The position numbers and the translations under genes are program-made. A stretch of DNA of 64,000 nt from Hydrotalea sp. (GTDB taxonomy: Bacteria > Bacteroidota > Bacteroidia > Chitinophagales > Chitinophagaceae), in contig JAKRSC010000027.1 in assembly GCA_022402565.1 (NCBI GenBank), forward strand, positions 25,060 through 89,059, read 5' to 3'. Positions 9,127-52,642 of this stretch are shown one piece after another (position 1 is the stretch's first letter; each line of letters opens with the position of its first letter). Under the pieces are notes generated by a model. The model was not told the origin of the DNA. It searched no databases and saw nothing but the letters and a program-made list of their open reading frames with translations.

Positions 9127-9142
9127 TTTTTAAAAAAAGAAT

Positions 9143-22508: not shown

Positions 22509-22638
22509 AAATTAGTATTTGTTAGAAGGATATGGCTTCGCCTCTCTCAGTCACAGTGCGCTGAGTTAACTGGTAGGCTAAACGATTGATTTTCAACGGG
22601 GGGATAGAAATACGAACACATACTATCCATAACGGGTG

Positions 22639-22669
22639 CAAATATAATGTGAAGGCTCTCGTTAACAAA
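22639..22669 (-). promoter_or_regulatory. candidate Bacteroidota-type promoter (TTTG-N19-TATATTTG) for the Wza-led operon
   Basis: The minus strand reads TTTG-ttaacgagagccttcacat-TATATTTG. This matches the -33 TTTG / -7 TAnnTTTG consensus known for Bacteroides-type promoters. It lies about 125 nt upstream of the ATG at 22508. Confidence 0.35.
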
Positions 22670-22706
22670 TTTTTGTTTTACGGGAATTTCCACATATAGG
22701 GGGGGT

Positions 22707-23141
22707 AGTCTTTGGTTTTTGGTCTTTGGTCTTTGGTCTTTAGTCTTTAGTCTTTGGTCTTTAGTCTTTGGTCTTTAGTCTTTGGTCTTTGGTGTCATAG
22801 CCTTTGTTATTGGAACTCCAAACAAAAATTGGATTGTTTTTTATGTGGGATTAAAAAAATGTATTGCTATAAGAAGTCTATTACATTTTTATTGTTCTTT
22901 TCCCTACTTTCTTTTGCTTTCCGCCCCCAAAAAATTTTGGGGCGGATCACTAAAGGCCTACAGTGCAAACGGTCCCTGAGGCTTCCCGAAAAATCGGGAC
23001 AGGTCCCGAATGCTTACCCTGAGCTTCCCGAATAGTCGGGACAGGTGTCGAAGGGGATCGGTCAGGCTTCGAAGGGCCGTGCATTTTGCCTTGCCCACGC
23101 GCCAACTCCAGTCCGCCCAAAAGATTTTCATTTGGGCGGAC
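22707..23141 (+). repeat. mosaic intergenic repeat, copy R1 (heptamer array + body B + palindrome P + module C + 2x module D + hairpin)
   Basis: 22707-22790 is 12 tandem heptamers (GGTCTTT/AGTCTTT). 22791-22920 is the AT-rich body GGTGTCATAGCC...CCCTACTTTCTTTTGCTTT. 22921-22945 is CCGCCCCCAAAAAATTTTGGGGCGG, followed by ATCACTAAAGGCCTACAGTGCAAACGGTCCCTGAGG. Two TTCCCGAAnAnTCGGGACAGGT units follow. 23111-23141 is the hairpin GTCCGCCCAAA-N9-TTTGGGCGGAC. Near-identical blocks recur at eight or more other sites. Confidence 0.9.
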
Positions 23142-23470
23142 AGCGACGGTTATTTTATTTTTAACCTTTGCCGCTGTGCAACAAGGGTTGGCACTTCGAT
23201 TATAGAAATGTTTCTTTAGTTGCAGATCTCTAAGTAGAATGATTTTTTTGAAATTAATTTACAATTAATGCGGACTTTGAGTCACGACATTTACAGTAGC
23301 ATCGTCTTGTATAGGTAATTAAGCTATTCAATTTTACCCATATCTCGACTTTGTTTTGCTAGCCTATACTGCAACAGCGGTTCTGTTCTTCACCAACAAC
23401 CATAATAAGCTTATTCGTGGTATATTAATTGTTAAATAGCTATTCTCTATTGCATTCCTTTTAGAGCAGT

Positions 23471-23630
23471 CTCTGAAGTTCCCGAATACTTGCCCTGAGG
23501 TTCCCGAATAATCGGGACAGGTCTCGAAGGGGTGTTGTTTGGTTTTTATATTGAATGATCTACATTCGATTTAAAATAGAGCAATAGTTCAACTCCTATT
23601 TACTTGCCCCTACTTTCTTTTGCTTTCCGT
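23471..23630 (+). repeat. repeat fragments (module D, then B-tail)
   Basis: 23471-23532 is CTGAAGTTCCCGAATACTTGCCCTGAGGTTCCCGAATAATCGGGACAGGTCTCGAAGGGG. 23591-23629 is AACTCCTATTTACTTGCCCCTACTTTCTTTTGCTTTCCG (compare 39051-39090). Confidence 0.8.
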
Positions 23631-23711
23631 CTCAAGAAATATTTCATACCATTTATAATTGCAACCATTTTTTAATAGATTATTTAGCATTCCATCGGCT
23701 TTTTCGCATCG

Positions 23712-23719
23712 TACATTTG
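23712..23719 (+). promoter_or_regulatory. candidate -7 box TACATTTG upstream of the zeta-like gene
   Basis: Matches TAnnTTTG, 29 nt upstream of the ATG at 23748. No good TTTG at the -33 position. Confidence 0.25.
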
Positions 23720-23747
23720 CACTAACTAATCATGTAGATTTGCTGAT

Positions 23748-24332
23748 ATGGCGGATAAAAATCTTTACATAATTGCTGGTTGTAATGGTGCGGGCAAGAC
23801 GACAGCGTCATTCACTATTTTACCCGAAATTATTGACTGTAAAGAGTTTATAAATGCCGATGAAATTGCCAAAGGGCTATCACCGTTTCAACCCGAAAAG
23901 GTATCTTTTGAAGCTGGACGAATTATGCTGAATAGAATAGCAGAACTGTTAGAGAGTAATGAAAGTTTTGCTTTTGAAACAACTTTATCGACAGTAAGTT
24001 ATAAGCAGAAAGTTTATGAAGCGAGACAAAAAGGATTTAACATAACACTACTTTTCTTCTGGCTTCAGAGTGTAGAGTTAGCAAAGGAACGAGTCAAAAT
24101 TAGGGTTACAGAAGGCGGACATAATATTGAGCCAGATGTTATTGAAAGACGATATCTTAGAGGAATAAAAAACTTGTTCAACATTTACCTTCCTATTGTA
24201 GATGGCGCATTAATTTTCGACAACTCGTTTGGCAAACATATCTTAATTGCAAAACAAATGATAGGCAATGATTTAGAAATTATTGACAGTTCAAAATTCA
24301 CCCTTCTAAAAAAGTATCATGACAACGACTGA
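23748..24332 (+). CDS. zeta-toxin-like / COG4185-type P-loop kinase-fold ATPase
   Basis: 194 aa. Walker A at the extreme N-terminus (IIAGCNGAGKTT), a FETTLS segment, and size and architecture typical of zeta-toxin family proteins. Confidence 0.65.
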   Translation: MADKNLYIIAGCNGAGKTTASFTILPEIIDCKEFINADEIAKGLSPFQPEKVSFEAGRIMLNRIAELLESNESFAFETTLSTVSYKQKVYEARQKGFNITLLFFWLQSVELAKERVKIRVTEGGHNIEPDVIERRYLRGIKNLFNIYLPIVDGALIFDNSFGKHILIAKQMIGNDLEIIDSSKFTLLKKYHDND

Positions 24333-24468
24333 AAAACAGGCTGAACTCTACAATAAAATACTTTTAGGACTTGAAAAGGTTTATGAAAAACTAATTGAGT
24401 TTAAAAAGCAAAAGAAGTCCGAACTTGTTGTTATGAAGGGCAACAAGATTGTAAAAGTAAAACCTTAA
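24319..24468 (+). CDS. 49-aa micro-ORF overlapping the zeta-like gene by 14 nt (possible partner/antitoxin)
   Basis: ATG at 24319, TAA at 24466-24468. Product: MTTTEKQAELYNKILLGLEKVYEKLIEFKKQKKSELVVMKGNKIVKVKP. Below the 60-aa ORF-track cutoff. Predicted helix plus a short beta tail, lysine-rich. Confidence 0.35.
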   Translation: MTTTEKQAELYNKILLGLEKVYEKLIEFKKQKKSELVVMKGNKIVKVKP

Positions 24469-24567
24469 TAAAATGCCTATCGCGAAAATTTTTTTAGGTG
24501 GTATGAACAAACTTGATGTATTAAGGTTTTCCTGAAATCTAGAAACCGTGGTTTGTGACTTTTGAAT

Positions 24568-25031
24568 AGTCTTTAGTCTTTGGCCTTTAGTCTTTGGTCT
24601 TTGGTGTCATGGCCTTTTTTTGGAATTCCGAACAAAAATTGGATTGTTTTTTATGTGGGATTTAAAAAATGTATTGCTATAAGAAGTCTATTACATTTTT
24701 ATTGTTCTTTTCCCTACTTTCTTTTGCTTGAACAAAAGAAAGTAGCAAAGAAAATTCAAGTGTTTACACCCTGACCGAAAGCGTCAGGAGCAAACCCAAT
24801 TCCGCCCCATTAAAAATTATGGGGCGGACGTTTTGGCTGGCCAACGCCACCATCGCTGAAAGCCTGCTGTCCACGCGGACCTCAGCGAGCCGCTGTGTCC
24901 AGCTAGGCTAGCAATGCGTTTCTATAATCGCATTTTTAAAAAGCATAAAAAAGGTACATAAGGTAAGAAAATGCTGCACTTCAGCTAGTATTTTAAATGA
25001 ACCAAAGACCAATACCCAAAGACTAAAGACC
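24568..25031. repeat. mosaic repeat copy R3, bounded by inverted heptamer arrays (MITE-like architecture)
   Basis: Left end 24568-24602 is 5 heptamers (AGTCTTT...GGTCTTT). Body B runs from 24603. Hairpin 24714-24745 is CTACTTTCTTTTG-cttgaa-CAAAAGAAAGTAG. GC-clamp hairpin 24802-24827 is CCGCCCCAT-N8-ATGGGGCGG followed by ACGTTTT. The module C tail ends ...CCGCTGTGTCCAGCTAGGCT at about 24910. Right end 25004-25031 is 4 inverted heptamers (AAAGACC AATACCC AAAGACT AAAGACC). Confidence 0.85.
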
Positions 25032-25079
25032 TTCCTTTAAGGCCTAAGATAGCGGGCGATAGAAACCAGAAACAACCCT

Positions 25080-26375
25080 TTACAACCTACAATCCACTTC
25101 ATTCCTCGGCAAAACCGACTTGGTATCAAACACCACGGCAGAGGGTGATTTCTTGAGAGATGCTATGTTGAGTTCTAAGAATTCTTTGTGCGCAACTGCT
25201 AAAATAATTCCATCAAATTGGCCTTGAATACTAGACGACAGCTCAATATCATATTCCTTTTTTACTTCATCGGCATGAGCATGCGGGTCATAAACATCTG
25301 GTCGAATTCCATAATCTATTAATTCATTGTAAATATCAACCACACGCGAATTGCGGATATCTGGACAGTTTTCTTTAAAAGTGATCCCTAGTATGAGAAT
25401 TTTAGCGTTTGCAATAAGCATCCCGCTTTTTATCATCATCTTAATCAACTTGGAAGCTACGAAACTTCCCATGTAATCATTCACCCTTCTACCACTTAAA
25501 ATGACTTGTGGATGATAACCGAGGCTTTCAGCTTTATGAGCTAAATAGTATGGATCTACACCAATACAATGACCACCTACTAATCCAGGTTTGAATTTTA
25601 GAAAATTCCATTTAGATCCAGCAGCTTCCAGCACATCGTGTGTATCGATATTCATTTTGTCGAAAATCAAAGCCAACTCATTCACAAAAGAAATATTAAT
25701 ATCACGTTGTGCATTTTCAATGGCCTTAGATGCTTCTGCAACGCGAATGCTGGGTGCCAGATGTGTACCGGCTGTAATAATACTTCCATACAGCGCATCC
25801 ACAAATTGAGCGATTTCAGGGGTTGATCCAGATGTTACTTTTTTAATTTTTGTGAGTGTATTCACCTTATCGCCAGGATTGATTCTTTCTGGAGAATATC
25901 CGCAATAAAAATCGCGCTGGAATTTCAATTTTGAAGCCCTCTCTAGAACAGGCACACAATCCTCTTCAGTACAACCAGGGTACACTGTGGATTCATAAAT
26001 AACCACATCCCCTTTTTTCAATACTTGTCCTACCATTTCAGAAGCCGACAATAAAAAACGAAGATTAGGAGCTTTGAATTGATCAATAGGAGTTGGGACA
26101 GTTATAATAAAGACATCGCAGCGGTTGATATCTTTTAATTGATTGGTAAATTGAAGTCCAATATAACTTGTTGAATCAGCAACTATTGCAGTTTTTAGCT
26201 CTTCGAGATTAGCCTCATTTGTTCTATCTATACCATTTAGAAGTTCTTGAACTCGATTTGCATCAGTATCAAAGCCAATAACAGGGTATTTTTTTGAGAA
26301 AGCAAGTGCCAGTGGTAATCCAACATAACCTAACCCAATCACAGCAATCTTAGTTTGAGATAATTTTTGTTCCAT
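25080..26375 (-). CDS. nucleotide-sugar 6-dehydrogenase (UDP-GlcNAc/ManNAc dehydrogenase type; TviB/WecC/Cap5O-like)
   Basis: Rossmann KIAVIGLGYVGLPLALAF and catalytic-Cys motif GGHCIGVDPYY. The start is taken at MEQKL (26375); an alternative ATG lies two codons upstream (26381). Confidence 0.8.
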   Translation of the reverse strand: MEQKLSQTKIAVIGLGYVGLPLALAFSKKYPVIGFDTDANRVQELLNGIDRTNEANLEELKTAIVADSTSYIGLQFTNQLKDINRCDVFIITVPTPIDQFKAPNLRFLLSASEMVGQVLKKGDVVIYESTVYPGCTEEDCVPVLERASKLKFQRDFYCGYSPERINPGDKVNTLTKIKKVTSGSTPEIAQFVDALYGSIITAGTHLAPSIRVAEASKAIENAQRDINISFVNELALIFDKMNIDTHDVLEAAGSKWNFLKFKPGLVGGHCIGVDPYYLAHKAESLGYHPQVILSGRRVNDYMGSFVASKLIKMMIKSGMLIANAKILILGITFKENCPDIRNSRVVDIYNELIDYGIRPDVYDPHAHADEVKKEYDIELSSSIQGQFDGIILAVAHKEFLELNIASLKKSPSAVVFDTKSVLPRNEVDCRL

Positions 26376-26454
26376 GCACATATTGAAAGGTTATATATCG
26401 AGGATTTACAGAGACCAAATGTACTGGTTGGTGAGGGATATTTCATGTTGATTT

Positions 26455-26590
26455 TTGTCCCCTTTACCGAAATCATCCCGCACGGCCCCTGAGGTTCCCG
26501 AATGGTTAACCGGGGGTTCGAGAGCCTCACCCACCGGCTGAAATTATAGGTCCCTGAAGTTCCCGAATAATAGGGACAGGTCTCGAAGAG
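26455..26590 (+). repeat. repeat modules G + D
   Basis: TTTTTGTCCCCTTTACCGAAATCATCCCGCACGG (compare 31545-31575), then CCCTGAGGTTCCCGAATGG...GGTTCGAGAGCCTCACCCACCGG (found inverted at 31930-31975), then GTCCCTGAAGTTCCCGAATAATAGGGACAGGTCTCGAAG. Confidence 0.8.
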
Positions 26591-26878
26591 TTGTTTTTTG
26601 CCTTTAGTCTTTGGTCTTTGGTGTCATGGCCTTTTTTTGGGAATTCCGAACAAAAATTAGATTGTTTTTTATGTGGGATTAAAAAAATGTATTGCTATAA
26701 GATGTCTATTACATTTTTATTGTTCTTTTCCCTACTTTCTTTTGCTTTCCGCCCCCAAAAAATTTCGGGGGCGGATCACTAAAGGCCTACAGTGCAAGCG
26801 GTCCCTGAGACTTTCCGAAGGACCGGGCTGTTATCAACTAAAGACCAATTCCCAAAGACCAAAGACAGAAAAAACAAC
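26590..26878. repeat. mosaic repeat copy R4: compact 289-bp unit with ~30-bp imperfect terminal inverted repeats (MITE-like)
   Basis: Left end is GTTGTTTTTTGCCTTTAGTCTTTGGTCTTTGG. The reverse complement of the right end is GTTGTTTTTTCTGTCTTTGGTCTTTGGG. Internally it has body B, palindrome 26749-26774 CCGCCCCCAAAAAATTTCGGGGGCGG and a truncated module C. The right end touches the AbiEii stop codon (26878-26880). Confidence 0.85.
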
Positions 26879-27732
26879 TACTCCTTCACCTTCAAATGGT
26901 TCATCAAATCGAGGAAATACTGAGGTGACCAAATCTGTAAGTCTAAGGGTTTTTGAATGAACGGGAGCACATCGACCTTAACCTGCTCCATATTGACAGA
27001 GGTAATTTTTTCAGCCAACATATCCCTTAATTCTGATACAGTAACTGTATCTTTTGACCAGTCGCCGCTTTCTTTTGCACGTTGGGTAAAATGCTGCAGG
27101 TTTAATGGAACACCTTTTCTGATATACCACTCCATATCGTACCAATCTCTTCCTTTTACCCTGTTTTTCCATTTTCTGAATAAGAGCGCATGCATTTTGC
27201 CAGCAAATAAATCGGGTAGCGTAAAGCAATTCACATAAAATGAAAATGGCTTAAGCAACAACAATTGCTCTGTTTCGAATGGTAAAGCGGGATGGGTATC
27301 TACTTCCAGTTTTATTTTGATAGAGGGTTTTACTTTGAGATTCAGTTGAGGGATGGTGTTTTCTAATACCAATTCACTCCACAAAGTTTCTGACTTTAAA
27401 AATGCCGAATCAACGGCTGTTTTAAATGATTTTTGTTTCTGCGCAATGCTTACTTTCAAACCCACTGAATCAAATTCTTGCTCTACGTGTTGTAAGAAAG
27501 GATGCATCTTAAACTCGGGATTCTTTGCTAATAATGAAAAGTCAAGGTCTTCAGAAAATCTATTCAAACCATGAAATATTCTCAAAGCAGTGCCTCCGTA
27601 AAAAGCAGCATACTTAAAAAAATGAGCTCTGTATAACCCTGCTAAAGCCACTTCCTGCATAATTTCTCGCAGTGCGTTCTCTGCACTATACTGGTTTTGG
27701 GGCTGATAACTATCTAACCATTCTTTGATCAT
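26878..27732 (-). CDS. AbiEii/AbiGii-family nucleotidyltransferase toxin
   Basis: 284 aa. FYGGTALRIFHGLNRFSEDLDFSL is the hallmark N-terminal NTase motif of AbiEii. Overlaps the AbiEi gene by 4 nt. Confidence 0.8.
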   Translation of the reverse strand: MIKEWLDSYQPQNQYSAENALREIMQEVALAGLYRAHFFKYAAFYGGTALRIFHGLNRFSEDLDFSLLAKNPEFKMHPFLQHVEQEFDSVGLKVSIAQKQKSFKTAVDSAFLKSETLWSELVLENTIPQLNLKVKPSIKIKLEVDTHPALPFETEQLLLLKPFSFYVNCFTLPDLFAGKMHALLFRKWKNRVKGRDWYDMEWYIRKGVPLNLQHFTQRAKESGDWSKDTVTVSELRDMLAEKITSVNMEQVKVDVLPFIQKPLDLQIWSPQYFLDLMNHLKVKE

Positions 27733-28367
27733 ATTTTACTTAAGTATTGAACGAGTTTTTGAATACTGTTTCTCTTGGGACAAGCATCCAGCCAGGAGTT
27801 GATGAGGCGGCTATTCAATTTTTTCAGTTGATCTTGCTCTATTCGCAAATCTTCTAACAGATACTCCTGCACCTGTTGAACACTTCTCAGTTGCAGCCCC
27901 GCAGTGGTGATCACTTTATCTGTCAAACTTTTTTCAGGACTTGCAATGAGTATGTTCTGTTGTTCTGTTAGATGGATGGATTGCACCCCAACAGGATAAT
28001 ATTCCGTTTGAACATGCTTGAATGAAAAATGGCCTATACTTGTTTGAAAGTTTTTGGAAGACCTCATGGTTATACTAGAAACTTCATACACCCTTTCGGG
28101 TATTAAGCCCCAATAATGCAGTGCTGAATCAGTAGAAATATAACTGGGTCCATACAGATGGTTGGCCACCAAAAATGGCTCCGGGGCAGCAATACCGGCT
28201 AAGGCAGTAGGAATGTATAGTCCCCGCCTGATTTGCTTTAAATAGCCTTGCGCTACCATTTCCATGATTTTATCATAGGGTCGATGGTAATCCTTGAGTA
28301 TGCCAAGTAGTACAGACGTGCTCAAAGGCTGTTGGGAATACTGTCTGAGTTGTTGCCGCCAGTCCAT
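27729..28367 (-). CDS. AbiEi-family antitoxin/transcriptional regulator
   Basis: 212 aa. An N-terminal winged-helix-like region (..MVAQGYLKQIRRGLYIP) is followed by a C-terminal AbiEi_4-like domain. Sits immediately upstream of AbiEii and is translationally coupled to it. Confidence 0.7.
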   Translation of the reverse strand: MDWRQQLRQYSQQPLSTSVLLGILKDYHRPYDKIMEMVAQGYLKQIRRGLYIPTALAGIAAPEPFLVANHLYGPSYISTDSALHYWGLIPERVYEVSSITMRSSKNFQTSIGHFSFKHVQTEYYPVGVQSIHLTEQQNILIASPEKSLTDKVITTAGLQLRSVQQVQEYLLEDLRIEQDQLKKLNSRLINSWLDACPKRNSIQKLVQYLSKI

Positions 28368-28386
28368 TTGCCAAATTTAACTATAT

Positions 28387-28407
28387 AATTCGGAAAATTT
28401 CCGAATT
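28387..28407. promoter_or_regulatory. perfect 10-1-10 palindrome AATTCGGAAAATTTCCGAATT; candidate AbiEi operator
   Basis: Lies 20-40 nt upstream of the AbiEi ATG (28367), 8 nt upstream of a -7-like box (minus strand TAAATTTG, 28372-28379). AbiEi proteins are known to autoregulate through inverted repeats in their promoter. Confidence 0.45.
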
Positions 28408-28433
28408 AAAGTGCATTTTTTAGCAATAATTCT

Positions 28434-28644
28434 AGTTTTCGGTCTTTTGTCTTTAGTATTTGGTCTTTGGTGTATGGAACTCCAAACAAAAATTAGACTG
28501 TTTTTTATGTTTGATTACAACAATGTATTCCAAGCCTAGCTGGGCACAGCGGTCCATCGGCATGCTAAGAGACCGCTTGCACTTTAGGCCTTTAGTGATC
28601 CGCCCACAAAATTTTTTGGGGGCGGAAAGCAAAAGAATGTAGGA
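28434..28644. repeat. mosaic repeat copy R5 with internally inverted C/P/B-tail modules
   Basis: Heptamers at 28434-28468. The B head is GGTGTATGGAACTCCAAACAAAAATTAGACTG.... Then comes AGCCTAGCTGGGCACAGCGG...ACCGCTTGCACTTTAGGCCTTTAGTGATCCGCCCACAAAATTTTTTGGGGGCGGAAAGCAAAAGAATGTAGG, which is the reverse complement of the P+C order seen in R1, R4, R7 and R8, with an internal deletion. Confidence 0.85.
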
Positions 28645-28740
28645 AGAAGAAGAAAAGGAATAAGTTGATCATATTATATCCAAGCAGTTACCAAGGAGTC
28701 TTCAAGCAAAAAAGAAAGAAAAACAGGCATTGAAGGATCA

Positions 28741-28860
28741 CGTTCCCACGATGGGAGGCCCCGAATCGCACTTCGAGAGCCTCAGGGACCGTGCGGGGTG
28801 ACGATAAAAAAGAGGGTTTCCCTACGATGAATGTCGGGACTGCAAGCCCGCTTTTGAAGC
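28741..28860 (+). repeat. repeat module F/D fragments
   Basis: CGTTCCCACGATGGGAGG...CTTCGAGAGCCTCAGGGACCG...ACGATGAATGTCGGGACTGCAAGCCCGC. Compare 31811-31866 (CGTTCCCACGACGGGAGATCCCCAACGATGAATGTCGGGACTCAAAGCCCGC). Confidence 0.8.
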
Positions 28861-28896
28861 AAGAATGATACTTAAAAGTAGCAAGTAACCCTTTAT

Positions 28897-31329
28897 CTAC
28901 CTCGTTATTTGCCAAATTAAAAAACCAGTGGTTGTGAGTGTAGATAAGGCTGAAATAAAAATACCAGCTCTAGCGAGATCAAAACCTTTAGATGGTTGCT
29001 TTTGAGGTACCACTACTAATGACCCAGGTAATACTTTGGGATTTTTAGGAATGAACCCAAGAACATACTTTTTGGTTTTGGATTTGCCATTTGCGTAGGT
29101 TACATAAATACTCTTCTTTTTTGCTGTTTCATTTAAACCACCAGCCATTTGAATAAAATATTGAAGCTTGGTGCTTTTTTCAAATACATAGGTACCAGGA
29201 TTATACACTTCACCACTTACAACCACATAATCATTCTTTTTAAGGAAAACCAGCTCATCTCCTTCTTCCAAAATTAAGTCGTTTACAGAGCCTGGTGCTG
29301 CCAATGCTTTTCCTAATTCAACATACAGATCTTTATTAATAGCTAATTGTACTTTTTTAATGAGCGTTCCAGAGGAATCCTTTGACTCAGATTGAGCAAG
29401 TTGTTCAATGGATGTTGAGTCAATTTTTTCTGAAACTCTTCTCTTAATTAGAGCTACTTGCTCGTTAGCTGTATATTTCAATCCACCTGCTCGTTTCAAA
29501 AATGAACTAACCCTTTCTGAACCAGTTTTTAGAACATACGAACCTGGATTTATAACCTCACCAGAAACATTCACAACTTTTGGCTGAGATAAGTAAGGAT
29601 CTTTTCTAACTGTTACCCTGTCATAGGGCTCTAAGAGAAATTCAGAAGATTGTTTTGAAAGTGTACCTTCATTTAATTCAATTACAAACAACTTGCTAAG
29701 CTCACCACCTAGTTGCTGTGTACTGCTATCTCTTACAACCCGGGCAACTTCAATTCTATCTATAACTGCATCATAAACAAACCCATTTGCCAATACCAGC
29801 AGGGCTTCTAAAGTCATTCCTTTTTGAAAGACCATTTGACCAGGCTTTTTTACAGCGCCATCAATTTGTACGGTCATTTCCAAAGCTAAGTCTCGCTTTG
29901 AAGGAACAGTTATTTCATCATCCTTTATTAAAACCCAATTATATAAACTAGGATTCAGCATAATGCTATCATAAGAGAAAGAATAGAACTCCTTATTCTT
30001 CCGATCATCGGACAGTCTAGCTAATTGAATTCTACCTCGAAATGCATCTTCCTTTAATCCTTCCGCTTTTTCTATCAAATCCTTTATATTCATTTTAGGT
30101 TGCAATGAATAAGCTCCGGGTCTATAAACAGCACCAGAAATTTGTACTCGGTTTTCAAAACGGTCTAATACAGATCCTACTGTTATAACATCTCCATCCA
30201 CCAATTCGGTTTTTGATAATGAGTCTGATAATACATCTATCATTTTTTGCTCTTTGCCAGTAATTCTTGTAATGGAAAGCAGGTTTTTAAAAGCCCTTGC
30301 CGAGAATCCACCTGCGTATTCTAGAAGTGTGTTGACTTTCTCATGAGCCAACATTTCAAATTGAGCAGGTTTATTCACTTCACCTTGTAAGGTTACTTGA
30401 ATCTTTGCATAAGGAATACGAATCACATCATCATCATGCAATAACACATTATCACTTACTTGACCATATACCAAGAATTTATACAAATCAGCCTTTAAAA
30501 CCACTTTCCCATTTCTAATGAGTTCTACTTCCCTTAATGAACCATTGGCTAATGGTCCCCCACTTTGATAAAGCGCATTAAATAAGGTTGTTAAACTAGG
30601 AACATTATAAGACCCAGGGGCAACAACCGCTCCTAAAATGGTTATTCTTATTGAACGAATGTTTCCTAGAGATAACATCAGTTTTGACTTGCCATTAGCT
30701 AATCCCGGATAAATTTTTGAGAGGGCTTTAGAAAGTTTAATTTTTGCTTCTTCGATACTTAGTCCATTTAATAAAACTGGGGGAATGTATTTATAACGAA
30801 CCATACCCTCAGAATTGATTAGTAAATTGAATTGAATGTCTGTACTTCCATGAATATCTACTCTGAGCTCATCTTCAGGTCCAAGACGATATTGAGTGGG
30901 CGTGGACATACGTAAATTGGGGGTAAAACTTAACTTATCGTTTGAAAACCATTCCAACCCAAAGATGGATGTCTCTTTAGGCTTTGGATTGGTACTAGTT
31001 AATTCAGTTCTCTGGATTTGACGTGCTTTTTGTTGGGGCAAGCTGGATGGACTTGATGGACTTGATGGCAATGAATTTCTAAGATCATTCACCCTCATCA
31101 TAATTTTCCCCATTTCATCCGATGATAATCCTCTTTTTAAAAGTTCATTTTGAATAAATTCGTCAGAATAACCTTCCGCATTTGCTTTGGCAATTAATTG
31201 CTTCAATTGATCATCACTAATGTTTTCTGATTTAATAGTAGGTAACATAGTGATTACCTCTTGGCATAAACCTTGTTGGAGAAAGGTAGAAACCAAAATC
31301 CCGGCTAGAATAAAAATTCTAAGAAACAT
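28897..31329 (-). CDS. second Wza-like multi-SLBB polysaccharide export protein (paralogue of 20094..22508)
   Basis: 810 aa with the same architecture as the first Wza: signal peptide, N-terminal helical module (SDDQLKQLIAKANAEGYSDEFIQNELLKRGLSSDEM), YRLGPEDELRVDIHG, repeated SLBB units and a C-terminal TM helix. Monocistronic, with repeats on both sides. Confidence 0.8.
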   Translation of the reverse strand: MFLRIFILAGILVSTFLQQGLCQEVITMLPTIKSENISDDQLKQLIAKANAEGYSDEFIQNELLKRGLSSDEMGKIMMRVNDLRNSLPSSPSSPSSLPQQKARQIQRTELTSTNPKPKETSIFGLEWFSNDKLSFTPNLRMSTPTQYRLGPEDELRVDIHGSTDIQFNLLINSEGMVRYKYIPPVLLNGLSIEEAKIKLSKALSKIYPGLANGKSKLMLSLGNIRSIRITILGAVVAPGSYNVPSLTTLFNALYQSGGPLANGSLREVELIRNGKVVLKADLYKFLVYGQVSDNVLLHDDDVIRIPYAKIQVTLQGEVNKPAQFEMLAHEKVNTLLEYAGGFSARAFKNLLSITRITGKEQKMIDVLSDSLSKTELVDGDVITVGSVLDRFENRVQISGAVYRPGAYSLQPKMNIKDLIEKAEGLKEDAFRGRIQLARLSDDRKNKEFYSFSYDSIMLNPSLYNWVLIKDDEITVPSKRDLALEMTVQIDGAVKKPGQMVFQKGMTLEALLVLANGFVYDAVIDRIEVARVVRDSSTQQLGGELSKLFVIELNEGTLSKQSSEFLLEPYDRVTVRKDPYLSQPKVVNVSGEVINPGSYVLKTGSERVSSFLKRAGGLKYTANEQVALIKRRVSEKIDSTSIEQLAQSESKDSSGTLIKKVQLAINKDLYVELGKALAAPGSVNDLILEEGDELVFLKKNDYVVVSGEVYNPGTYVFEKSTKLQYFIQMAGGLNETAKKKSIYVTYANGKSKTKKYVLGFIPKNPKVLPGSLVVVPQKQPSKGFDLARAGIFISALSTLTTTGFLIWQITR

Positions 31330-31368
31330 ACAATAGATGAATTGAAAATGTTATGGGGGGACAAGTGG

Positions 31369-31376
31369 CAAATATA
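31369..31376 (-). promoter_or_regulatory. candidate -7 box TATATTTG upstream of the second Wza gene
   Basis: The octamer is identical to the one at 22639-22646 (minus strand TATATTTGC). It lies about 40 nt upstream of the ATG at 31329. The -33 element is poor (TTTC). Confidence 0.25.
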
Positions 31377-31508
31377 TGAATCCTAGTTGATTCTAACAGA
31401 AATAGTAAACTCATCAAAAAGCCAGGCAATTACTAGTAGACATATATTTTCACTGATAATTAGTGTGATGTTAACCAACCAAGGACGAGAAAAAAATTAC
31501 CAGCGGCT

Positions 31509-32010
31509 GGTCTTTAGTTTTTAGTCTTTAGTCGTTGGCTGTTGGTTTTTGTCCCCTTTTCCGAAGTCATCCCTAACTTGATCAGGGATCTGTTGTTAAT
31601 GAACGCAGTAACCCAGAAGCTAATAATGCTTTTATTGAGTGAAGAGGGTTGGTGGAGTTACGTTTCTACTACAGGAGATCCCGCATTAAATGCAGGATGA
31701 CGTTATGGGGAGGGGCTGGATGACGTTCTTGGAGCGTGCGGAATCTGTTTTTTTGAATGCGGTAACCGAAAGGCCTATTATTCTTATTATGAAAGGGGAT
31801 GGTTTGGTTACGTTCCCACGACGGGAGATCCCCAACGATGAATGTCGGGACTCAAAGCCCGCATTGCCCCTTCGAAGCCTGTCCCGGCCCTTCGAGAACC
31901 TCAGGGACTGGGCATTCGGGAAACCTCAGGTAACTGCTCTCGAACCCCAAATCATAATTCCATACCGGTGGGTGGCCTTCCGGAAACCTGAGGAACCAAT
32001 CATTTCAGCC
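31509..32010 (+). repeat. mosaic repeat region R6 (heptamers + G + 2xE + F + D-type modules)
   Basis: 31509-31550 holds 6 degenerate heptamers. Then come TTTTTGTCCCCTTTTCCGAAGTCATCCCT and the E units (GGGATCTGTTGTTAATGAACGCAGTAACCCAGAAG; GCGGAATCTG..GAATGCGGTAACCGAAAGG). F is at 31811-31866. D-like CCCCTTCGAAGCCTGTCCCGG...CATTCGGGAAACCTCAGG follows. The 116-aa ORF at 31690..32040 lies wholly inside this region. Confidence 0.8.
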
Positions 32011-32023
32011 GGTAGCTGGCCTA

Positions 32024-32311
32024 TTATCTTGTACCAATAGGGGCAACTTGAATTTGTCCGCCCAATGCTTTTAGAACTTTTAGAATTGTAGTAAATTGTG
32101 GTTTAGATCCTTGTGCCAGCGATTTATATAAACTGGGTCTGCTTAAGCCAGTATGTTCAGCAATTTTCGTCATTCCAATAGCTTTTGCAACATGTCCAAT
32201 TGCTGCAATTATTTCATCATTATTGCCCTCTTCCAACACTGTATTTAAATATTCAGCAATCATTTCATTGCTTTCTAAATAATCTGCTATTTCAAATTTT
32301 GAGGTTTCCAT
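32024..32311 (-). CDS. addiction-module antidote protein, HigA family (HTH)
   Basis: 95 aa. YLESNEMIAEYLNTVLEEGNNDEIIAAIGHVAKAIGMTKIAEHTGLSRPSLYKSL..KPQFTTILKVLKALG is the typical layout of this antidote family. Confidence 0.75.
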   Translation of the reverse strand: METSKFEIADYLESNEMIAEYLNTVLEEGNNDEIIAAIGHVAKAIGMTKIAEHTGLSRPSLYKSLAQGSKPQFTTILKVLKALGGQIQVAPIGTR

Positions 32312-32314
32312 TGC

Positions 32315-32618
32315 CTACTTTTTAATCTTGTTCCAAATTTCTTTTGCTTTTTCAATATCCTTTTGCTGGGTAGACTTATCACCTCCAACTAAAAGAATAA
32401 TAATTCTACCATCTGTTTCCTTAAAATAAACTCGATAGCCCTTTGAATAGTTTATCCTCAACTCTTTAATTCCACCACCCACTGGTTTACAATCGCCAAA
32501 ATACTCTTCCTTTTCTAATCGTTGATTGAATTCGAAATAAAATCTTAGCCTTTGCGGTTATGTCATTTAATTTCCTCAGCCATTTATCGAATTCAGTAGT
32601 CCTTTCTATGAGAAACAT
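32315..32618 (-). pseudogene. frameshifted addiction-module killer gene (RelE/ParE superfamily, HigB-like partner of the antidote)
   Basis: The ATG at 32618 gives MFLIERTTEFDKWLRKLNDITAKAKILFRIQ, then a stop 15 codons later. The +1 frame continues QRLEKEEYFGDCKPVGGGIKELRINYSKGYRVYFKETDGRIIILLVGGDKSTQQKDIEKAKEIWNKIKK* with its stop at 32315-32317. The frames are reconciled by removing one copy of a tandem TCAA-TCAA (plus strand TTGATTGA, 32522-32529). Confidence 0.75.
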
Positions 32619-32728
32619 GGCAAATAACGTATTCACTTGGATACAAAATTATGTCAAAAAAGTAATCCAAGAAATTAATTTTAGAGACTTCTACTAACGA
32701 ACATTTGAGAACCACTTTTTTAACCTTT

Positions 32729-33076
32729 GGTTGTTGGTCATTTTTTGGTCTTTTGTCTTTGGTCTTTGGTGTCATGGCATTTGTTATTGGAACTCCAAAT
32801 AAAAGTTAGATTGTTTTTTATGTGTGATTACAAAAACGTTTTGGTATAAGAAGCCTATTGCATTTTTATTGTTCTTTTCCCTACTTTCTTTTGCTTTCCG
32901 CCCCCAAAAAATTTTGGGGTCGGATGGTTCGAATTGCCAAAACATCACTAAAGGCCTACAGTGCAAGCGGTCCCTGAGGCTCTCGAAGGGCCGCGCGTTT
33001 TGGCTGGCCAACGCCACCATCGCTGAGTGCCTGCTGTCCACGTGCTGCTCAGCGAGCCGCTGTGTCCAGCTAGGCT
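32729..33076 (+). repeat. mosaic repeat copy R7 (heptamers + B + P + C)
   Basis: Heptamers at about 32729-32767. Body GGTGTCATGGCATTTGTTATTGGAACTCC.... Palindrome at 32899-32923, with an extra segment (about 20 nt) containing GGTTCGAATTGCCAAAAC. Full module C ends ...GCTCAGCGAGCCGCTGTGTCCAGCTAGGCT. Confidence 0.9.
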
Positions 33077-33177
33077 TGGCCATACGTATTTATTAAAAGT
33101 GGAAAGTAACCATTCAACAGATTTTTTTCTACCATCTCTTTTGCTTGAAGCCCCTTTCAAGTGCAACGTTACATGTG

Positions 33178-33255
33178 GGGACTAAAAGCCCGCATCGCCC
33201 CTTCGGCACCTGTCCCGACTATTCGGGAGGTTCAGGGCAAGCATTCGGGAACCGC
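33178..33255 (-). repeat. module F-tail/D, inverted orientation
   Basis: GGGGACTAAAAGCCCGCATCGCCCCTTCGGCACCTGTCCCGACTATTCGGGAGGTTCAGGGCAAGCATTCGGGAACC is the reverse complement of the D units at 22981-23055. Confidence 0.8.
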
Positions 33256-33276
33256 AGTGACTAGGCAAGAAAATCC

Positions 33277-33520
33277 AAAGACCAACAACTAAAGACCAAC
33301 AACTAAAGACCAAAGACCTACTTCCAACCAAAGACCAACAACTAAAGACCAAAGACCTACTTCCAACCAAAGACCAACAGCTAAAGACCAAAGACCTACT
33401 TCCAACTAAAGACCAACAGCTAAAGACTAAAGACCTACTTCCAACTAAAGACCAACAGCTAAAGACCAAAGACCTACTTCCAACTAAAGACCAACAGCTA
33501 AAGACTAACAAACAAAGACT
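33277..33520 (-). repeat. higher-order tandem repeat: 5 full 39-bp units (plus partial ends) built from AAAGACC-type heptamers
   Basis: Units start at 33291, 33330, 33369, 33408 and 33447. The unit is AAAGACC-AACA(A/G)CT-AAAGAC(C/T)-AAAGACC-TACTTCC-AAC(C/T), i.e. 5x7+4 nt. The period was verified from CCTAC positions 33317, 33356, 33395, 33434 and 33473. 39 nt equals 13 codons, which explains the artefactual 114-aa ORF at 33182..33526. Confidence 0.95.
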
Positions 33521-33533
33521 TATCATTTCCCCC

Positions 33534-33541
33534 TATTTTTG
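33534..33541 (+). promoter_or_regulatory. candidate -7 box TATTTTTG for the GT2-led operon
   Basis: Matches TAnnTTTG, 17 nt upstream of the TTG start at 33558 and 14 nt after the tandem array. The -33 position falls inside the array and has no TTTG. Confidence 0.25.
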
Positions 33542-33557
33542 ATAAAAACCATATCTC

Positions 33558-34454
33558 TTGCTCGTATCCATCATTATTGTACATTATCAATGCTTACCCG
33601 ATTTGGAACAATGCCTTCAATCCATTCAACAGCATGTTCCTCTGTACAATAAAGAGGTATTGGTGGTTGATAATGCCAGCATAGAACCTGAAAAATGGAC
33701 CTCCTTTGCTTCAAAATTTTCGTTTGCTTCTTTTTTTCAGCTTCCTGAAAACATTGGCTTTGGCAGGGCTAATCAGTTTGCTATCGATCGAGCTAAAGGC
33801 CAATATCTTTTTCTCTTGAATCCCGATACAGTGCTGGAATCTGATGTATCTGTTCCTTTTCTTGCATTCATGGAAAACCCTCTTAATGCTGCGGTTGGCT
33901 GCTGTGGAGGCGAATTGTATGCAACATCGGGCAGACCAGTTACTTCTTATGGCAATTTTCCCTCACTTTTTCAAAGCTTTGCTTCACTTGGATTTTATTT
34001 GTTTTTTAAATCGTTTTACTACCGAAAATTATCGCTGGGCTCTGCTAATACTTATACCCAACCTACTCGAGTAGACTATATAGCCGGTGCCGATTGGTTT
34101 GTTAGAAAGGAAGTATTGGTTTCTGTAGGGGGCTTTGACCCAGATTTCTTCCTGTATTTTGAAGAAACAGAACTTGCCTGGAGATTGCAAAAGGCAGGAT
34201 ACCAAAGCTGGATTTTACCTCATGTTCGTATTCGACATGAAGAAGGGGGCGCAAGCGGACATAACCAAGAACGATTCAACGCCTTTGCATATAGGCATTA
34301 CCTGAGAAGCGAACGCCTGTTTTATCAAAAAACGAAAGGGCCTTTATACGGATTCATCGCCATTCCTCTCCATCTCACTTCCATGACGCTTCATTTGCTG
34401 GCAAAAGGGAAGTTGGGTGAATGGATTGCACGACTCAAAGTTTGGTTCTCATAA
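33558..34454 (+). CDS. family 2 glycosyltransferase (GT-A)
   Basis: 298 aa, TTG start. VSIIIVHYQC...VVDNAS...NIGFGRANQ...LLNPD (DxD-equivalent) and a rhamnosyltransferase-like C-terminal half. Confidence 0.8.
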   Translation: MLVSIIIVHYQCLPDLEQCLQSIQQHVPLYNKEVLVVDNASIEPEKWTSFASKFSFASFFQLPENIGFGRANQFAIDRAKGQYLFLLNPDTVLESDVSVPFLAFMENPLNAAVGCCGGELYATSGRPVTSYGNFPSLFQSFASLGFYLFFKSFYYRKLSLGSANTYTQPTRVDYIAGADWFVRKEVLVSVGGFDPDFFLYFEETELAWRLQKAGYQSWILPHVRIRHEEGGASGHNQERFNAFAYRHYLRSERLFYQKTKGPLYGFIAIPLHLTSMTLHLLAKGKLGEWIARLKVWFS

Positions 34455-34481
34455 TATCTAGGAAGGCTGTATTTTGGCAGC

Positions 34482-35651: not shown

Positions 35652-36369
35652 GTTTAAAAAGGTTTTCATCATAGCTTCCCCCAATGAACCGGAGGATAGA
35701 AAAAAGAATGTAGCCGCTCTCCTTGAACTCATTCCTGAAGCAACAATACAACCAGCCATTTATCCTTCTATTACAAAAGTGCCCTTTCTTGAACGTTTAA
35801 AAGACCTCAGTGCAGCAAGAACTGGAACACGACTTAATAACGGGGAGATTGGAATTTTACTTACCAATCGTTCTATTTGGAGGTCTATTTTACAGATGGA
35901 AGGCAATTCAACCGATAAGTTTCTGATTTTAGAATCAGATAGCACCATCAACAATCTTCCTTTTTTTCTGGATAAAGGAAAAGAAATAACTGATGGGTAT
36001 GATATGTTTTTTTTAGGCGCATGGTCGGGGAATATGAAGTTGAAGAGAAGTACTATTCAAACTGTTTCATTGCCTTTTAAAATTGGTGTGCCTTATATGA
36101 AAAGTGTTTGCTGTGGGTATGGCTATGTGGTGAATACGCATGCGGCTTCTCAATTGCTCCAATTCACCAAAAAAATTGGCCATCCTGTTGATGAGTTTAA
36201 AAAATATTTACCCAAGAATATTTTTAGGATTGGAGGAATTATGCCCGAACTGATTTCGGAACTACCCTATTCCACTACCATTGGTCACCCGAATTATGGC
36301 AATCCTTTGTTTCGCGCTAAGATGTTTTTAGTGCATCTTCGCAATTCCCTAGTATCTTACTTTTCATGA
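35638..36369 (+). CDS. family 25-like glycosyltransferase (LPS/LOS beta-1,4-galactosyltransferase type)
   Basis: Start placed at the ATG at 35638 (MSQHKFKKVFIIASPNEPEDRKKNV...). The N-terminal 41 codons of the track ORF overlap the GT4 gene. LNNGEIGILLTNRSIW resembles the GT25 GEIGC motif region. Confidence 0.55.
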   Translation: MSQHKFKKVFIIASPNEPEDRKKNVAALLELIPEATIQPAIYPSITKVPFLERLKDLSAARTGTRLNNGEIGILLTNRSIWRSILQMEGNSTDKFLILESDSTINNLPFFLDKGKEITDGYDMFFLGAWSGNMKLKRSTIQTVSLPFKIGVPYMKSVCCGYGYVVNTHAASQLLQFTKKIGHPVDEFKKYLPKNIFRIGGIMPELISELPYSTTIGHPNYGNPLFRAKMFLVHLRNSLVSYFS

Positions 36370-38924: not shown

Positions 38925-38932
38925 TTGGGGTT

Positions 38933-39270: not shown

Positions 39271-39538
39271 AAACAATTCGTTCTTAATTTAATTTCTTAA
39301 AGTCCAAAGCACCGTTTTTTGTCTTCACAAACCACTATGACAGATTCATTCGTAGCTGAGTAATCAATTCCAATTCTTCTTATCCCTACAGTTTTTCAAG
39401 AAAAAGAAAGTAACAGATTGTTTAAAAGAAATTCATGTATTTCATCAGGATATCTGCTACCGTGAAAAGGTTATAGCAATACTTCAACACCTTAAGTGAA
39501 AGGGTTTGGCAACCCAATGACCAAACACCACCATCCCT

Positions 39539-43472: not shown

Positions 43473-43477
43473 AACTA

Positions 43478-52633: not shown

Positions 52634-52642
52634 TAGTGATGT

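Follow-up and report, generated by a model that had tools for sequence, protein, structure and literature searches.

BIME/NIME/MITE-like mosaic intergenic repeats in a polysaccharide gene cluster of a freshwater Bacteroidota

A polysaccharide (sugar-coat) gene cluster of a freshwater Bacteroidota is the host locus of a family of mosaic repeats that is BIME/NIME/MITE-like: a known kind of bacterial repeat, with new sequences and restricted to one lineage. The window analyzed here is a 64-kb stretch from a MAG of Hydrotalea sp. (Chitinophagaceae). The repeats are probably non-coding composites confined to this lineage and remodelled by slippage, trans-acting insertion and recombination. Comparison with a close strain indicates that they are still being reshuffled.

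Extent and nature of the repeats

Self-comparison of the window identified repeated DNA at 22671-23100, 23463-23645, 24548-24940, 26446-26840, 28433-28689, 31508-31940, 32717-33533, 38906-39448, 43396-43523 and 52755-52948, and every copy found was intergenic. Ten of the 11 recurring blocks listed in a preliminary description of this DNA were thus recovered, while the remaining one (53120-53290) depends on an 11-nt match (F1 at 53159). The block at 38933-39529 was mostly recovered, except for its tail (39450-39529), which lacks repeat support. The heptamer-array pattern matched 32 times against 0.00 expected from 100 shuffles. Tandem Repeats Finder located period-7 arrays of 5-12 copies at 22708, 24569, 38931 and 43424, together with a higher-order 39-nt array at 33286-33505. 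The same description held that the repeats fill essentially all non-coding DNA, which was overstated: 54% of the 4642 intergenic bases in 22509-33557 match elsewhere in the window, and 66% once the related contigs L054 and L057 are added, with 23141-23460 being an example of unique gap sequence. Its count of about 15 spurious ORFs was about right, since we found 18 ORFs of at least 60 aa, mostly in the gaps.

No part of the window matched Rfam at gathering level, and at E<=1 there were chance-level mir-204 matches alone (E 0.4-0.8), all on palindrome P. Neither the tRNA search nor the Pfam search returned anything at the repeat elements, and direct reading showed that reading frames are not kept from copy to copy. 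We therefore read the elements as non-coding and not as a described RNA. The novelty suggested earlier held against Rfam, and the module sequences were absent from the literature searched; even so, the family is not wholly unrecognizable, since the heptamer arrays (H), the hairpin E1 and the end of module B, which is an arm of module X, resemble known or more widespread sequences. As for phylogenetic range, sequence searches found modules B, P and C in this lineage only, but X also in MITE-like elements of Ralstonia, Pasteurellaceae and Ilyobacter. Among the window ORFs of at least 100 aa there was no transposase, integrase, invertase or other recombinase, and no RAYT (Y1 transposase) gene.

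Module order, nesting and folding

All seven modules described earlier are present where they were reported, but we separated 16. The elements range from about 270 to 800 bp. Their preferred order is a heptamer array H(+) of GGTCTTT/AGTCTTT units, the AT-rich B, P or the hairpin X, the GC-rich C and an inverted array H(-). The canonical composite reads H-B5-B3-P-C5-S-C3a-C3b...H(inv) and is repeated in R6, R1, R3 and at 1882-2241 of contig L057, alongside deletion, inversion and replacement derivatives. The modules, described earlier as shuffled, are not shuffled freely: they have this preferred order, with H(+) always on the left edge and H(-) always on the right. P, P2, P3, E1, S, a 20-nt hairpin and F1 are short hairpins with 2-10 copies each in the 64 kb, all intergenic.

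The composites are given here on the plus strand. R6 (32729-33533) is the fullest copy and comprises H(+), B5, B3, P, C5, S, C3a and C3b (to 33076), then a stretch like the right arm of X with a CTTGAA/TTCAAG hairpin (33098-33165), F2, two D(-) units and a long H(-) region in which a 39-nt unit is repeated 5.6 times (33286-33505). R1 (22706-23141), upstream of a Wza-like exporter gene (20094-22508, minus strand), begins with an H(+) array of 12 heptamers (22706-22793) and continues with B5 and B3 (22794-22920), P (22921-22945), C5 (22946-22972), an S unit bearing two 20-nt hairpin insertions (22971-23060), a C3a-like piece (23070-23100) and the GC hairpin P3 (23112-23141). At 23463-23630, two D/S hairpin units (23478-23532) accompany a B variant, Bs, that terminates in the left arm of X (23591-23626). 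R2 (24567-25031) consists of H(+), B5, B3, a complete X (24712-24760), a small hairpin, palindrome P2 (24801-24828), C3a and C3b (24829-24909), a unique AT-rich stretch and H(-) (25001-25031). R3 (26446-26866) has D/S/G units on its left (26493-26588) and a core (26600-26866) of H(+), B5, B3, P, C5, truncated S and H(-), with an inverted repeat that reaches outward to GTTGTTTTTT / AAAAAACAAC.

R4 (28433-28860) represents an inverted subtype, with H(+), B5', C3b(-), C5(-), P and the B3 end(-) followed by F1(+), S(-) and F2(+). R5 (31508-32010) includes a degenerate H(+), E2 (31585-31613), the candidate CGTC-type REP hairpin E1 (31677-31702, minus strand), F1 and F2 (31812-31862), D(-), S(-) and G(-). 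R7 (38931-39417), between convergent housekeeping genes, carries H(+), F1(-), Bs, P, C5, S, C3a, a further S, C3b and, reversed, part of an X (39383-39417). R8 (43287-43481) contains an E1/E2-like unit (43287-43331) and an H(-) array (43411-43481), and R9 (52642-52948) a short H(+), a complete X (52787-52836), and C3a' and C3b (52871-52935).

Several modules of the preliminary description are nested insertions of smaller units. A 20-nt hairpin lies within the 23-nt S unit, which in turn lies within a ~50-nt sub-repeat of C, and in alignment both S and the 20-nt hairpin are present in some paralogous C copies and absent from others. The B3-P-C segment is found in both orientations beside H-B5, and its junctions carry inverted repeats that are short and imperfect, AAATGTATT / AATACGTAT; the inverted subtype and the canonical form have one junction in common.

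Inverted H(+)/H(-) arrays bracket R2, R3 and R6. By structure prediction, composites fold as giant hairpins closed by both arrays: the predicted fold of R2 is one giant single-strand hairpin (z -11.6), that of R3 has a z of -4.9, and in both the MFE and centroid structures pair H(+) with H(-) as the closing stem.

Comparison between strains

Contig L053 is syntenic with the window and comes from an independent metagenome assembly of a strain ~96% identical to it. The same elements occupy the same gene junctions there over 16 kb, and R4 is conserved. Against this background we observed several differences. First, TCCCGAATAGTCGGGACAGG, a 20-nt hairpin in the window, is cleanly missing from L053, where the site reads CCCTGAGCT^TGTCGAAGGG. 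Second, the R1 array differs by 40 nt in length and the 39-nt array of R6 by exactly one 39-nt unit. Third, a module swap distinguishes R3 at 26458-26550. Fourth, segment 31406-33209 (~1.8 kb), comprising elements and a toxin-antitoxin pair, is missing at the orthologous place. About 1.2 kb of this segment recurs at another locus, represented by contig L057, which aligns at 89% identity over 1234 nt with the minus-strand block 31998-33194. That block combines the H-B-P-C part of R6 with a HigA-like antitoxin (32024-32311) and a truncated toxin resembling Gp49/HigB. Moreover, the E and F units of R5 recur in L054, and the X+C unit of R9 is 88% identical to L054 1766-1912.

The mobility of the elements is inferred from a handful of such polymorphisms, which could also be deletions, and the strain comparison covers two to three related genomes. 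Since most element sequence is as conserved as the flanking genes between the window and L053, the elements may be under constraint and hence have a function.

Module X

X is a hairpin-pseudoknot with two complete copies in the window, at 24712-24760 and 52787-52836, and its left arm forms the end of every B module. A near-identical ~50-nt motif was found in Chitinophagaceae, Ralstonia, Dechloromonas, Pasteurellaceae, Chromatiales and Ilyobacter (Fusobacteriota). It consists of a U/A-rich hairpin of 13-14 bp, whose loop is complementary to the 3' tail in seven different combinations, and a connecting purine tract that invariably mirrors the right arm of the hairpin. Judged from sequence, this mirror tract looks like a triple-helix or H-type pseudoknot signature. 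Covariation across phyla was seen between loop and 3' tail and within the stem.

In the copies folded from Ralstonia, Pasteurellaceae, Dechloromonas, Chromatiales, a Gammaproteobacteria MAG and Ilyobacter, a long hairpin has X at one of its ends. The stem of this hairpin also covaries (compensatory changes in 16 of 59 pairs in Ralstonia), and its loop, AACTCGCTnCGCTCAGACA, is conserved among those Proteobacteria copies that were read. The copies read from Ralstonia and Pasteurella have two X-hairpin halves set opposite one another within a MITE-like element of ~420-520 bp, which varies in presence among Ralstonia strains. Rfam gave no match at X in seven other loci. Tentatively, X may be part of a so far undescribed family of structured mobile elements that spans several phyla, although we would put this at somewhat less than an even chance. 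If so, a widely transferred, undescribed machinery of mobilisation or processing would recognise X as a conserved structure.

Proposed explanation and alternatives

We propose that the elements are non-autonomous DNA, selfish or semi-domesticated, of the REP/BIME/NIME/MITE kind. Replication slippage in the arrays would contribute to their spread and remodelling; it is proposed because of the 40-nt difference in the R1 array and the exactly one-unit difference in R6. An enzyme whose gene lies elsewhere in the genome, perhaps a Y1 transposase of the RAYT type, would insert the small hairpin units, and homologous recombination or gene conversion would occur between dispersed copies. The large stem-loops might punctuate transcripts, and recombination at the elements could carry toxin-antitoxin cassettes and sugar genes into and out of the polysaccharide locus.

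Rather unlikely, though compatible with selfish elements, is a cis-regulatory role in which the heptamer arrays act as simple-sequence rheostats in the 5' leaders of polysaccharide genes, with slippage altering array length and an enzyme such as RNase III processing the large RNA hairpins, so that capsule expression is phase-variable or graded. Five H(+) arrays do lie 74-220 nt upstream of minus-strand starts (22508, 26381, 28367, 31329 and ~32620; AAAGACC in the sense direction) and one H(-) array precedes the plus-strand gene at 33558, the length differences between strains are whole units, and the predicted H(+)/H(-) stems are long. There is also a precedent in the (ATCTTTC)n array of the Haemophilus influenzae hmw1A 5'-UTR, where an RNase III-processed hairpin sets expression (PMC12721329), and heptamer arrays occur directly upstream of start codons in other contigs and in the literature (PMC4679880). 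However, arrays are also found downstream of genes or between convergent genes (24567, 25001, 26837, 38931, 43411 and 52642), and no promoter could be assigned; a sigma-70 scan, whose model leaves out Bacteroidota promoters, gave no enrichment.

It is doubtful that one or more of X, C and P are structured non-coding RNA genes, with the repeats as their paralogs. The strong and significant predicted folding and the covariation of X and of the long hairpin beside it in Ralstonia would suit such genes, but covariation is equally expected for single-stranded-DNA transposition intermediates, and Rfam offers no match. Furthermore, copies stand in both orientations relative to neighbouring genes, and truncated, nested and swapped units are the pattern of mobile DNA rather than of genes.

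We consider it very unlikely that the elements are attC-like or other site-specific recombination sites that capture cassettes, or invertible switches of the type seen in Bacteroides capsule promoters. In favour, the repeats set apart cassette-like units, with elements on both sides of three toxin-antitoxin modules and of single sugar genes; the element and toxin-antitoxin block is present or absent at one locus and found elsewhere; and B3-P-C occurs in two orientations with inverted repeats at the junctions. Yet no recombinase is encoded among the ORFs searched, the cassettes are in mixed orientation, and these are mosaics of 270-800 bp, whereas attC sites measure 60-140 bp; where orientation differs at the orthologous locus, a subtype of other content has taken the element's place, and there is no clean in-place inversion. 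Collapsed or chimeric repeats from assembly or binning are hardly credible, for although short-read contigs break at repeats (L001 ends inside R2 and R3, L053 and L057 in modules), the independent assembly reproduces the elements at the same junctions.

Comparison with known repeat families

Taken as non-autonomous mosaic repeats, the elements share much with the REP/BIME sequences and REPINs of Escherichia coli, which are also non-coding, intergenic clusters of GC-rich hairpins in both orientations, interleaved with other short motifs and with units occurring singly, as inverted pairs or in mosaics. REPINs are mobilised by a trans-encoded RAYT (TnpA_REP), and RAYT subclasses 2.4 and 2.6 occur in Bacteroidetes with atypical REPs (PMC6006769, PMC3116915). 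The short hairpins of the window, from P to F1, fit the description of a REP as an extragenic, highly repeated GC-rich palindrome of 20-40 bp; a REPIN-RAYT system further has a cognate RAYT gene between REPs, and the window ORFs of at least 100 aa include none. In contrast to E. coli BIMEs, our composites have heptamer arrays at their boundaries and an AT-rich body of 130 bp inside, and they are far larger. The earlier label "BIME-like" therefore suits the modular mosaic intergenic architecture but not membership: no unit has an unpaired GTAG tag (the GTAG of X lies in a stem), and the order is H-B-P/X-C-H without alternating Y/Z palindromic units.

The nested hairpins have a counterpart in Nostoc, whose small dispersed repeats (SDR), described by Elhai and colleagues in 2008, are reportedly hairpins of ~20-25 nt inserted at fixed sites inside other repeats; these SDR are also mentioned in PMC3116915. 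Both systems place very small hairpin units within larger repeats; the phylum and sequences differ, and insertion in the window is documented by a few polymorphisms. A CRISPR array was rejected, as the heptamers and the 39-nt unit are head-to-tail without unique spacers.

H belongs to the class of intergenic heptanucleotide arrays (LSSR/STRR), given its period of 7, its 32 matches against 0 expected and its length difference from L053. This class includes the TAACTGA arrays of Beggiatoaceae, Cyanobacteria and Bacteroidetes (PMC4679880), the cyanobacterial STRR and the hmw (ATCTTTC)n array of H. influenzae (PMC12721329). Such arrays are likewise intergenic period-7 tandems, often near start codons and with several types per gap, and vary between strains in 7-nt steps. 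H differs in its heptamer and in forming inverted pairs around a complex element.

In Neisseria NIMEs, dRS3, a CGTC-1 REP, flanks RS units, so that CGTC hairpins are interleaved with other repeat families (PMC3733652), and the window likewise has mosaic intergenic regions mixing a candidate CGTC-type hairpin with other families. REPs of this superfamily carry a CGTC tag and a CCA tail, and their stem of 8-9 bp, which starts with A and T, encloses 4-5 nt of loop (PMC3733652). E1 (CGTC-ATCCTGCA-TTTAA-TGCGGGAT) fits in its tag, its 8-bp stem starting with AT and its 5-nt loop, but its tail is CTC and the window holds one clear copy. The sequences are unrelated to those of NIMEs, and the CGTC-type unit is a minor component of the window, although abundant in L054.

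MITEs, and Correia elements in particular, are, like ours, non-autonomous, sub-kilobase, multi-copy and intergenic, and their terminal inverted repeats allow the transcript to fold as a long hairpin, as H(+) and H(-) do here. No target-site duplication flanks R2, R3 or R6, and no parent IS or transposase was found in the window. A MITE of Porphyromonas gingivalis carries a minisatellite, a Bacteroidota precedent for a MITE with an internal tandem repeat (PMC4596501), whereas here the termini are themselves variable-length heptamer arrays. These inverted arrays act as terminal inverted repeats, and the family is closer to a MITE or a Neisseria NIME than to a BIME.

Intergenic repeats of the window

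The window has a G+C content of about 37%, and between 22.5 and 39 kb long gaps break up its gene order. Self-comparison revealed repeated DNA in the gaps at nearly all coordinates of the preliminary description, and every module sequence quoted there was found in the window. Two stretches fell away, namely 53120-53290, where only an 11-nt match was seen, and 39450-39529, which had no repeat support. The repeats had also been said to fill essentially all non-coding DNA of the island, but in fact they account for 54% of its intergenic DNA, or 66% when matches to related contigs are included. Spurious open reading frames do occur in the gaps as claimed, although 18 of them (at least 60 aa, mostly inside the gaps) were counted instead of about 15. 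The heptamer-array pattern was matched 32 times in the window against none expected from shuffles, and Tandem Repeats Finder reported period-7 arrays together with one 39-nt higher-order array. At 13852-13908, where two ORFs of the sugar operon overlap, a 21-nt unit is tandemly repeated (2.7 copies, 78% matches).

Anatomy of the composite elements

All gaps were mapped by means of 16 consensus sequences, one for each module. The modules are the GGTCTTT/AGTCTTT heptamer array (H), an AT-rich body (B5, B3), a palindrome (P), a GC-rich module (C5, C3a, C3b), a 23-nt unit (S), the smaller units D, E1/E2, F1/F2 and G, and a hairpin found across phyla (X). They form nine composite elements, R1-R9, in which the array at the left edge always has the GGTCTTT sense, H(+), and that at the right edge always the AAAGACC sense, H(-). 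Most complete is R6 (32729-33533), with the order H(+) B5 B3 P C5 S C3a C3b ... F2 D(-) D(-) H(-). Its core order recurs in R1 (22706-23141) and R3 (26446-26866), which are truncated, in R7 (38931-39417) with a variant of B, and at 1882-2241 of the comparison contig L057. In R2 (24567-25031) and R9 (52642-52948), a complete hairpin X replaces P-C5. An inverted subtype comprises R4 (28433-28860) and the copy at the R2 position of contig L053; here C(rc)-P-B3(rc) is joined to H-B5 via an identical junction, ATGTATT-CCA-AGCCTAGCTGG. Folded as single strands, R3 and R2 each form one giant hairpin closed by H(+):H(-), with z-scores of -4.9 and -11.6, respectively.

The modules are themselves composed of smaller units. 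Two paralogous sub-repeats, each about 50 nt long (ATCRCTRAARGCCTRCWGTSCAMGYGG, then the S unit), make up module C, and the S unit (TGGTCCCTGAGnnTGnCGAAGGG) is present or absent among copies at a fixed point after GTCCACG. Module D, listed as a separate module in the preliminary description, proved to be an S unit interrupted midway by an inserted 20-nt hairpin (TCCCGA-ATAG-TCGGGA-CAGG). On the minus strand, E1 (31677-31702) has the sequence CGTC-ATCCTGCA-TTTAA-TGCGGGAT and matches the CGTC-tagged REP superfamily (PMC3733652) in tag, stem and loop, without the CCA tail; units of the CGTC type are numerous in contig L054. Six long stop-free translations of the repeats had no match in Pfam, and a small peptide encoded in B was rejected, the frame differing between copies.

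Gene context

Positions 1-22500 carry an operon of closely spaced minus-strand genes for a sugar pathway of the nonulosonic-acid type and for export; their products include NeuB, cytidylyltransferases, aminotransferases, Wzz and a Wza-like protein. The elements lie between a zeta-toxin-like gene, an AbiEii/AbiEi pair, a HigBA-like pair, a UDP-sugar dehydrogenase (25080-26381; 100% identical to NCBI 'MAG: nucleotide sugar dehydrogenase [Hydrotalea sp.]'), two Wza-like exporters and glycosyltransferases, and also between housekeeping genes at 38.9, 43.3 and 52.6 kb. We considered a composite transposon from H(+) at 38931 to H(-) at 43411 and rejected it, the enclosed genes being housekeeping ones (PnuC, NadR-like, transglycosylase, methyltransferase). 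Intrinsic terminators and sigma-70 promoters were likewise discarded, with no enrichment over shuffles.

Several further features of the locus were recorded. Four toxin-antitoxin modules lie in a 13-kb stretch of the polysaccharide locus, three of them flanked by repeat elements: HepT/MNT (19359-20085), a zeta-toxin-like gene with a small downstream ORF (23748-24470), AbiEii/AbiEi (26878-28367) and a HigA-like gene with a truncated Gp49/HigB-like toxin (32024-32620). The two Wza-like exporters (20094-22508 and 28897-31329, Poly_export and SLBB domains) are paralogous, with nucleotide similarity over 546 nt (21613-22158 versus 30422-30967). Four large ORFs (480, 511, 562 and 801 aa; 6085-10831 and 49426-51831) had no Pfam match at 1e-5, three of them in the sugar-biosynthesis operon, and a 1056-aa protein at 55418-58588 carries a CHAT (caspase-like) domain at its C-terminus.

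Differences between strains

Window 20104-35899 has a syntenic counterpart in the 17.9-kb JGI metagenome contig L053, with a nucleotide identity of about 96%, and members of the family also occur in L057, from the same sample, and in the ENA contig L054. Over most of their length, the elements of the window and of L053 are conserved to the same degree as the adjacent genes. The differences between the two are discrete. Compared with L053, the window has 40 nt more in the R1 array and exactly one additional 39-nt unit in R6. A 20-nt hairpin (23026-23045) is cleanly missing from L053, inside CCCTGAGCT^TGTCGAAGGG, while about 95 nt (26458-26550) are represented in L053 by non-homologous module sequence with sharp boundaries, and the module set at the R2 position differs. 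In place of 31406-33209, which holds R5 (31508-32010), the HigBA-like toxin-antitoxin pair and most of R6, L053 has just 155 unrelated bases. The segment 31998-33194, with the toxin-antitoxin pair and an H-B-P-C element, matches L057 over 1234 nt with 89% identity; there it adjoins an AAA_14/DUF4143 gene and thus occupies another locus. Therefore, gain, loss and exchange of the elements, and of the cassettes that they flank, have taken place within a short evolutionary time.

Range of the modules

An 18-mer from the end of B gave 31 single matches and no multi-copy genome among 185,579 species representatives; a 26-mer of C matched one contig, L054, in the metagenome scan; and among 5.8 billion proteins the spurious ORFs of C/P/B had one match and those of E/F none. 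Because these searches gave so few matches, B, P and C look confined to this Hydrotalea lineage. The heptamer arrays range more widely. Three-copy GTCTTTR arrays were found in 19 contigs of the viral collection (25-63% G+C) without any other module, some surrounded by small GC hairpins and further heptamer arrays or located immediately 5' of a start codon. They agree with the intergenic heptamer arrays of unassigned function published for Cyanobacteria, Beggiatoaceae and Bacteroidetes (PMC4679880).

A similar mosaic style was seen in IMG/VR contigs of about 62% G+C (L036 2650-2800, L045 7150-7300, L046 800-950 and L049 4190-4320), in which arrays of GAAATGT, TGAGACT, GTCTTTA, CTTTTCA, GGTCTCT, CGAACTT and CCAACGG are interleaved with short GC hairpins, sometimes inverted and adjoining a start codon. 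L054, a metagenome contig of 42% G+C, has gaps (1-450, 1440-2400 and 9480-9900) dense with tandem CGTC-type hairpins (CGTCATCCCGCAnnnnnTGCGGGATC), TCCCGTCGTGGGAACG units, CCCTGAGSnnnnCGAAGGG units and GGGATGACG(T) runs, a far denser relative of the E/F/S modules of the window. It also contains one X+C unit that is 88% identical to window 52760-52904.

A hairpin shared across phyla

Seven of the 31 matches to the end of B share about 48 nt with window 24712-24760. This hairpin, X, is a 13-14 bp structure (CYACTTTCTTTTG / CAAAAGAAAGTRG) with two complete copies in the window, and every B module has the left arm of X as its 3' end. In the plasmid collection it was found in 107 Ralstonia megaplasmids and in Pasteurella, Ilyobacter, Pseudoalteromonas and others. 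The loop is complementary to sequence 3' of a purine tract in seven different pairs (TCTGC/GCAGA, GCCC/GGGC, TCGCC/GGCGA, TGTGC/GCACA, TGTA/TACA, CTTGAA/TTCAAG and TGCC/GGCA), with a mean complement of 4.5 nt to its own tail versus 2.8 nt to the tails of other copies. The purine tract is in every case the mirror image of the right arm and never a direct copy; when the A residues preceding and following the single G are counted, the right arm and the third tract give (4,3)/(3,4), (3,5)/(5,3), (3,4)/(4,3) and (3,3)/(3,3). Judged from sequence, X may form an intramolecular triplex or a pseudoknot with an A-rich loop along the stem, either of which would need homopurine tracts of such mirror symmetry.

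A long hairpin follows X in the folded copies from Ralstonia, Pasteurellaceae, Dechloromonas, Chromatiales, a gammaproteobacterial MAG and Ilyobacter. Its loop (AACTCGCTnCGCTCAGACA) is conserved in the proteobacterial copies read, and its stem covaries, with double changes in 16 of 59 pairs among four Ralstonia copies. In the Ralstonia and Pasteurella copies read, two halves of X plus long hairpin make up an inverted pair about 420-520 bp long (in full at L055 2462-2985 and L059 1500-2050 of Ralstonia and L033 3000-3418 of Pasteurella), while Ilyobacter (L056 2498-2665) has one such half over the stretch read. This inverted pair occupies 13 places in one replicon of Ralstonia sp. RRA.1, and at the cbiE/cobaltochelatase junction it is absent from some R. 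solanacearum strains and present in others. Two inverted X hairpins about 45 nt apart in a Chitinophagaceae MAG (L003 4770-4915) represent a minimal X...X' arrangement. Homology of C with the proteobacterial long hairpin was also considered, but only suggestive motifs were found and the claim was dropped. Seven X-bearing loci had no meaningful Rfam match at E<=1, E. coli genomes and phages had no match to X, and a literature search by sequence string returned nothing relevant. If confirmed as a conserved functional structure, X would be a tractable handle on a mobilisation or RNA-processing system of distant bacteria.

Interpretation

The reading with the best support is that the repeats, which are composite and non-autonomous, form a lineage-specific family of the REP/BIME/NIME/MITE kind. 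Its anatomy and syntax, its nesting and folding, the polymorphisms between strains, the relocation of the cassette and the lack of coding potential are matters of observation. The family would have spread by slippage, by insertion of small units through a trans-acting enzyme, and by recombination or gene conversion among copies, and may punctuate transcripts and promote cassette turnover.

The five to six arrays upstream of genes may plausibly act in regulation, in which case the H. influenzae system of hmw heptamers and RNase III (PMC12721329) would be the model. The remaining readings are less well supported. As to RNA genes, the Rfam check suggested in the preliminary description was run at gathering level on the whole window and at E<=1 on 22400-33700 and returned nothing meaningful, and a tRNA/tmRNA scan found none. 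As to an integron-like system, no transposase, recombinase or RAYT was found among the window ORFs of at least 100 aa. As to an invertible switch, in-place inversion at R2 was rejected, L053 carrying a different subtype there without a clean inversion. As to an artefact, L053, an independent metagenome assembly, has the same elements at the same gene junctions over 16 kb.

The composite repeats also have practical consequences: they break short-read assemblies of this lineage and give rise to about 18 spurious ORFs in 64 kb.

Comparison with known systems

Proteobacteria (BIME, NIME, REPIN) and Cyanobacteria have well-known families of mosaic repeats, but to our knowledge hardly any has been described in Bacteroidota. 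The Hydrotalea elements work like BIME and NIME, although the test for BIME membership was negative. They resemble MITEs in their inverted termini, but no target duplication was seen at the ends of R2, R3 or R6 and no parent IS was found. The arrays of the window fall into the heptamer-array class already known, and one unit shows most of the features listed for CGTC-type REPs, except the CCA tail. A literature search with family sequence strings gave nothing relevant, and four features are undescribed in the sources searched: variable heptamer-array termini, three-level nesting of hairpin units, the tie to toxin-antitoxin cassette movement in a Bacteroidota polysaccharide locus, and the inclusion of a cross-phylum hairpin in such elements. 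The family shows mosaic building unusually clearly, with nesting of unit in unit, array slippage, module replacement and a toxin-antitoxin cassette moving together with its flanking elements, in a capsule/exopolysaccharide locus where variability is adaptive.
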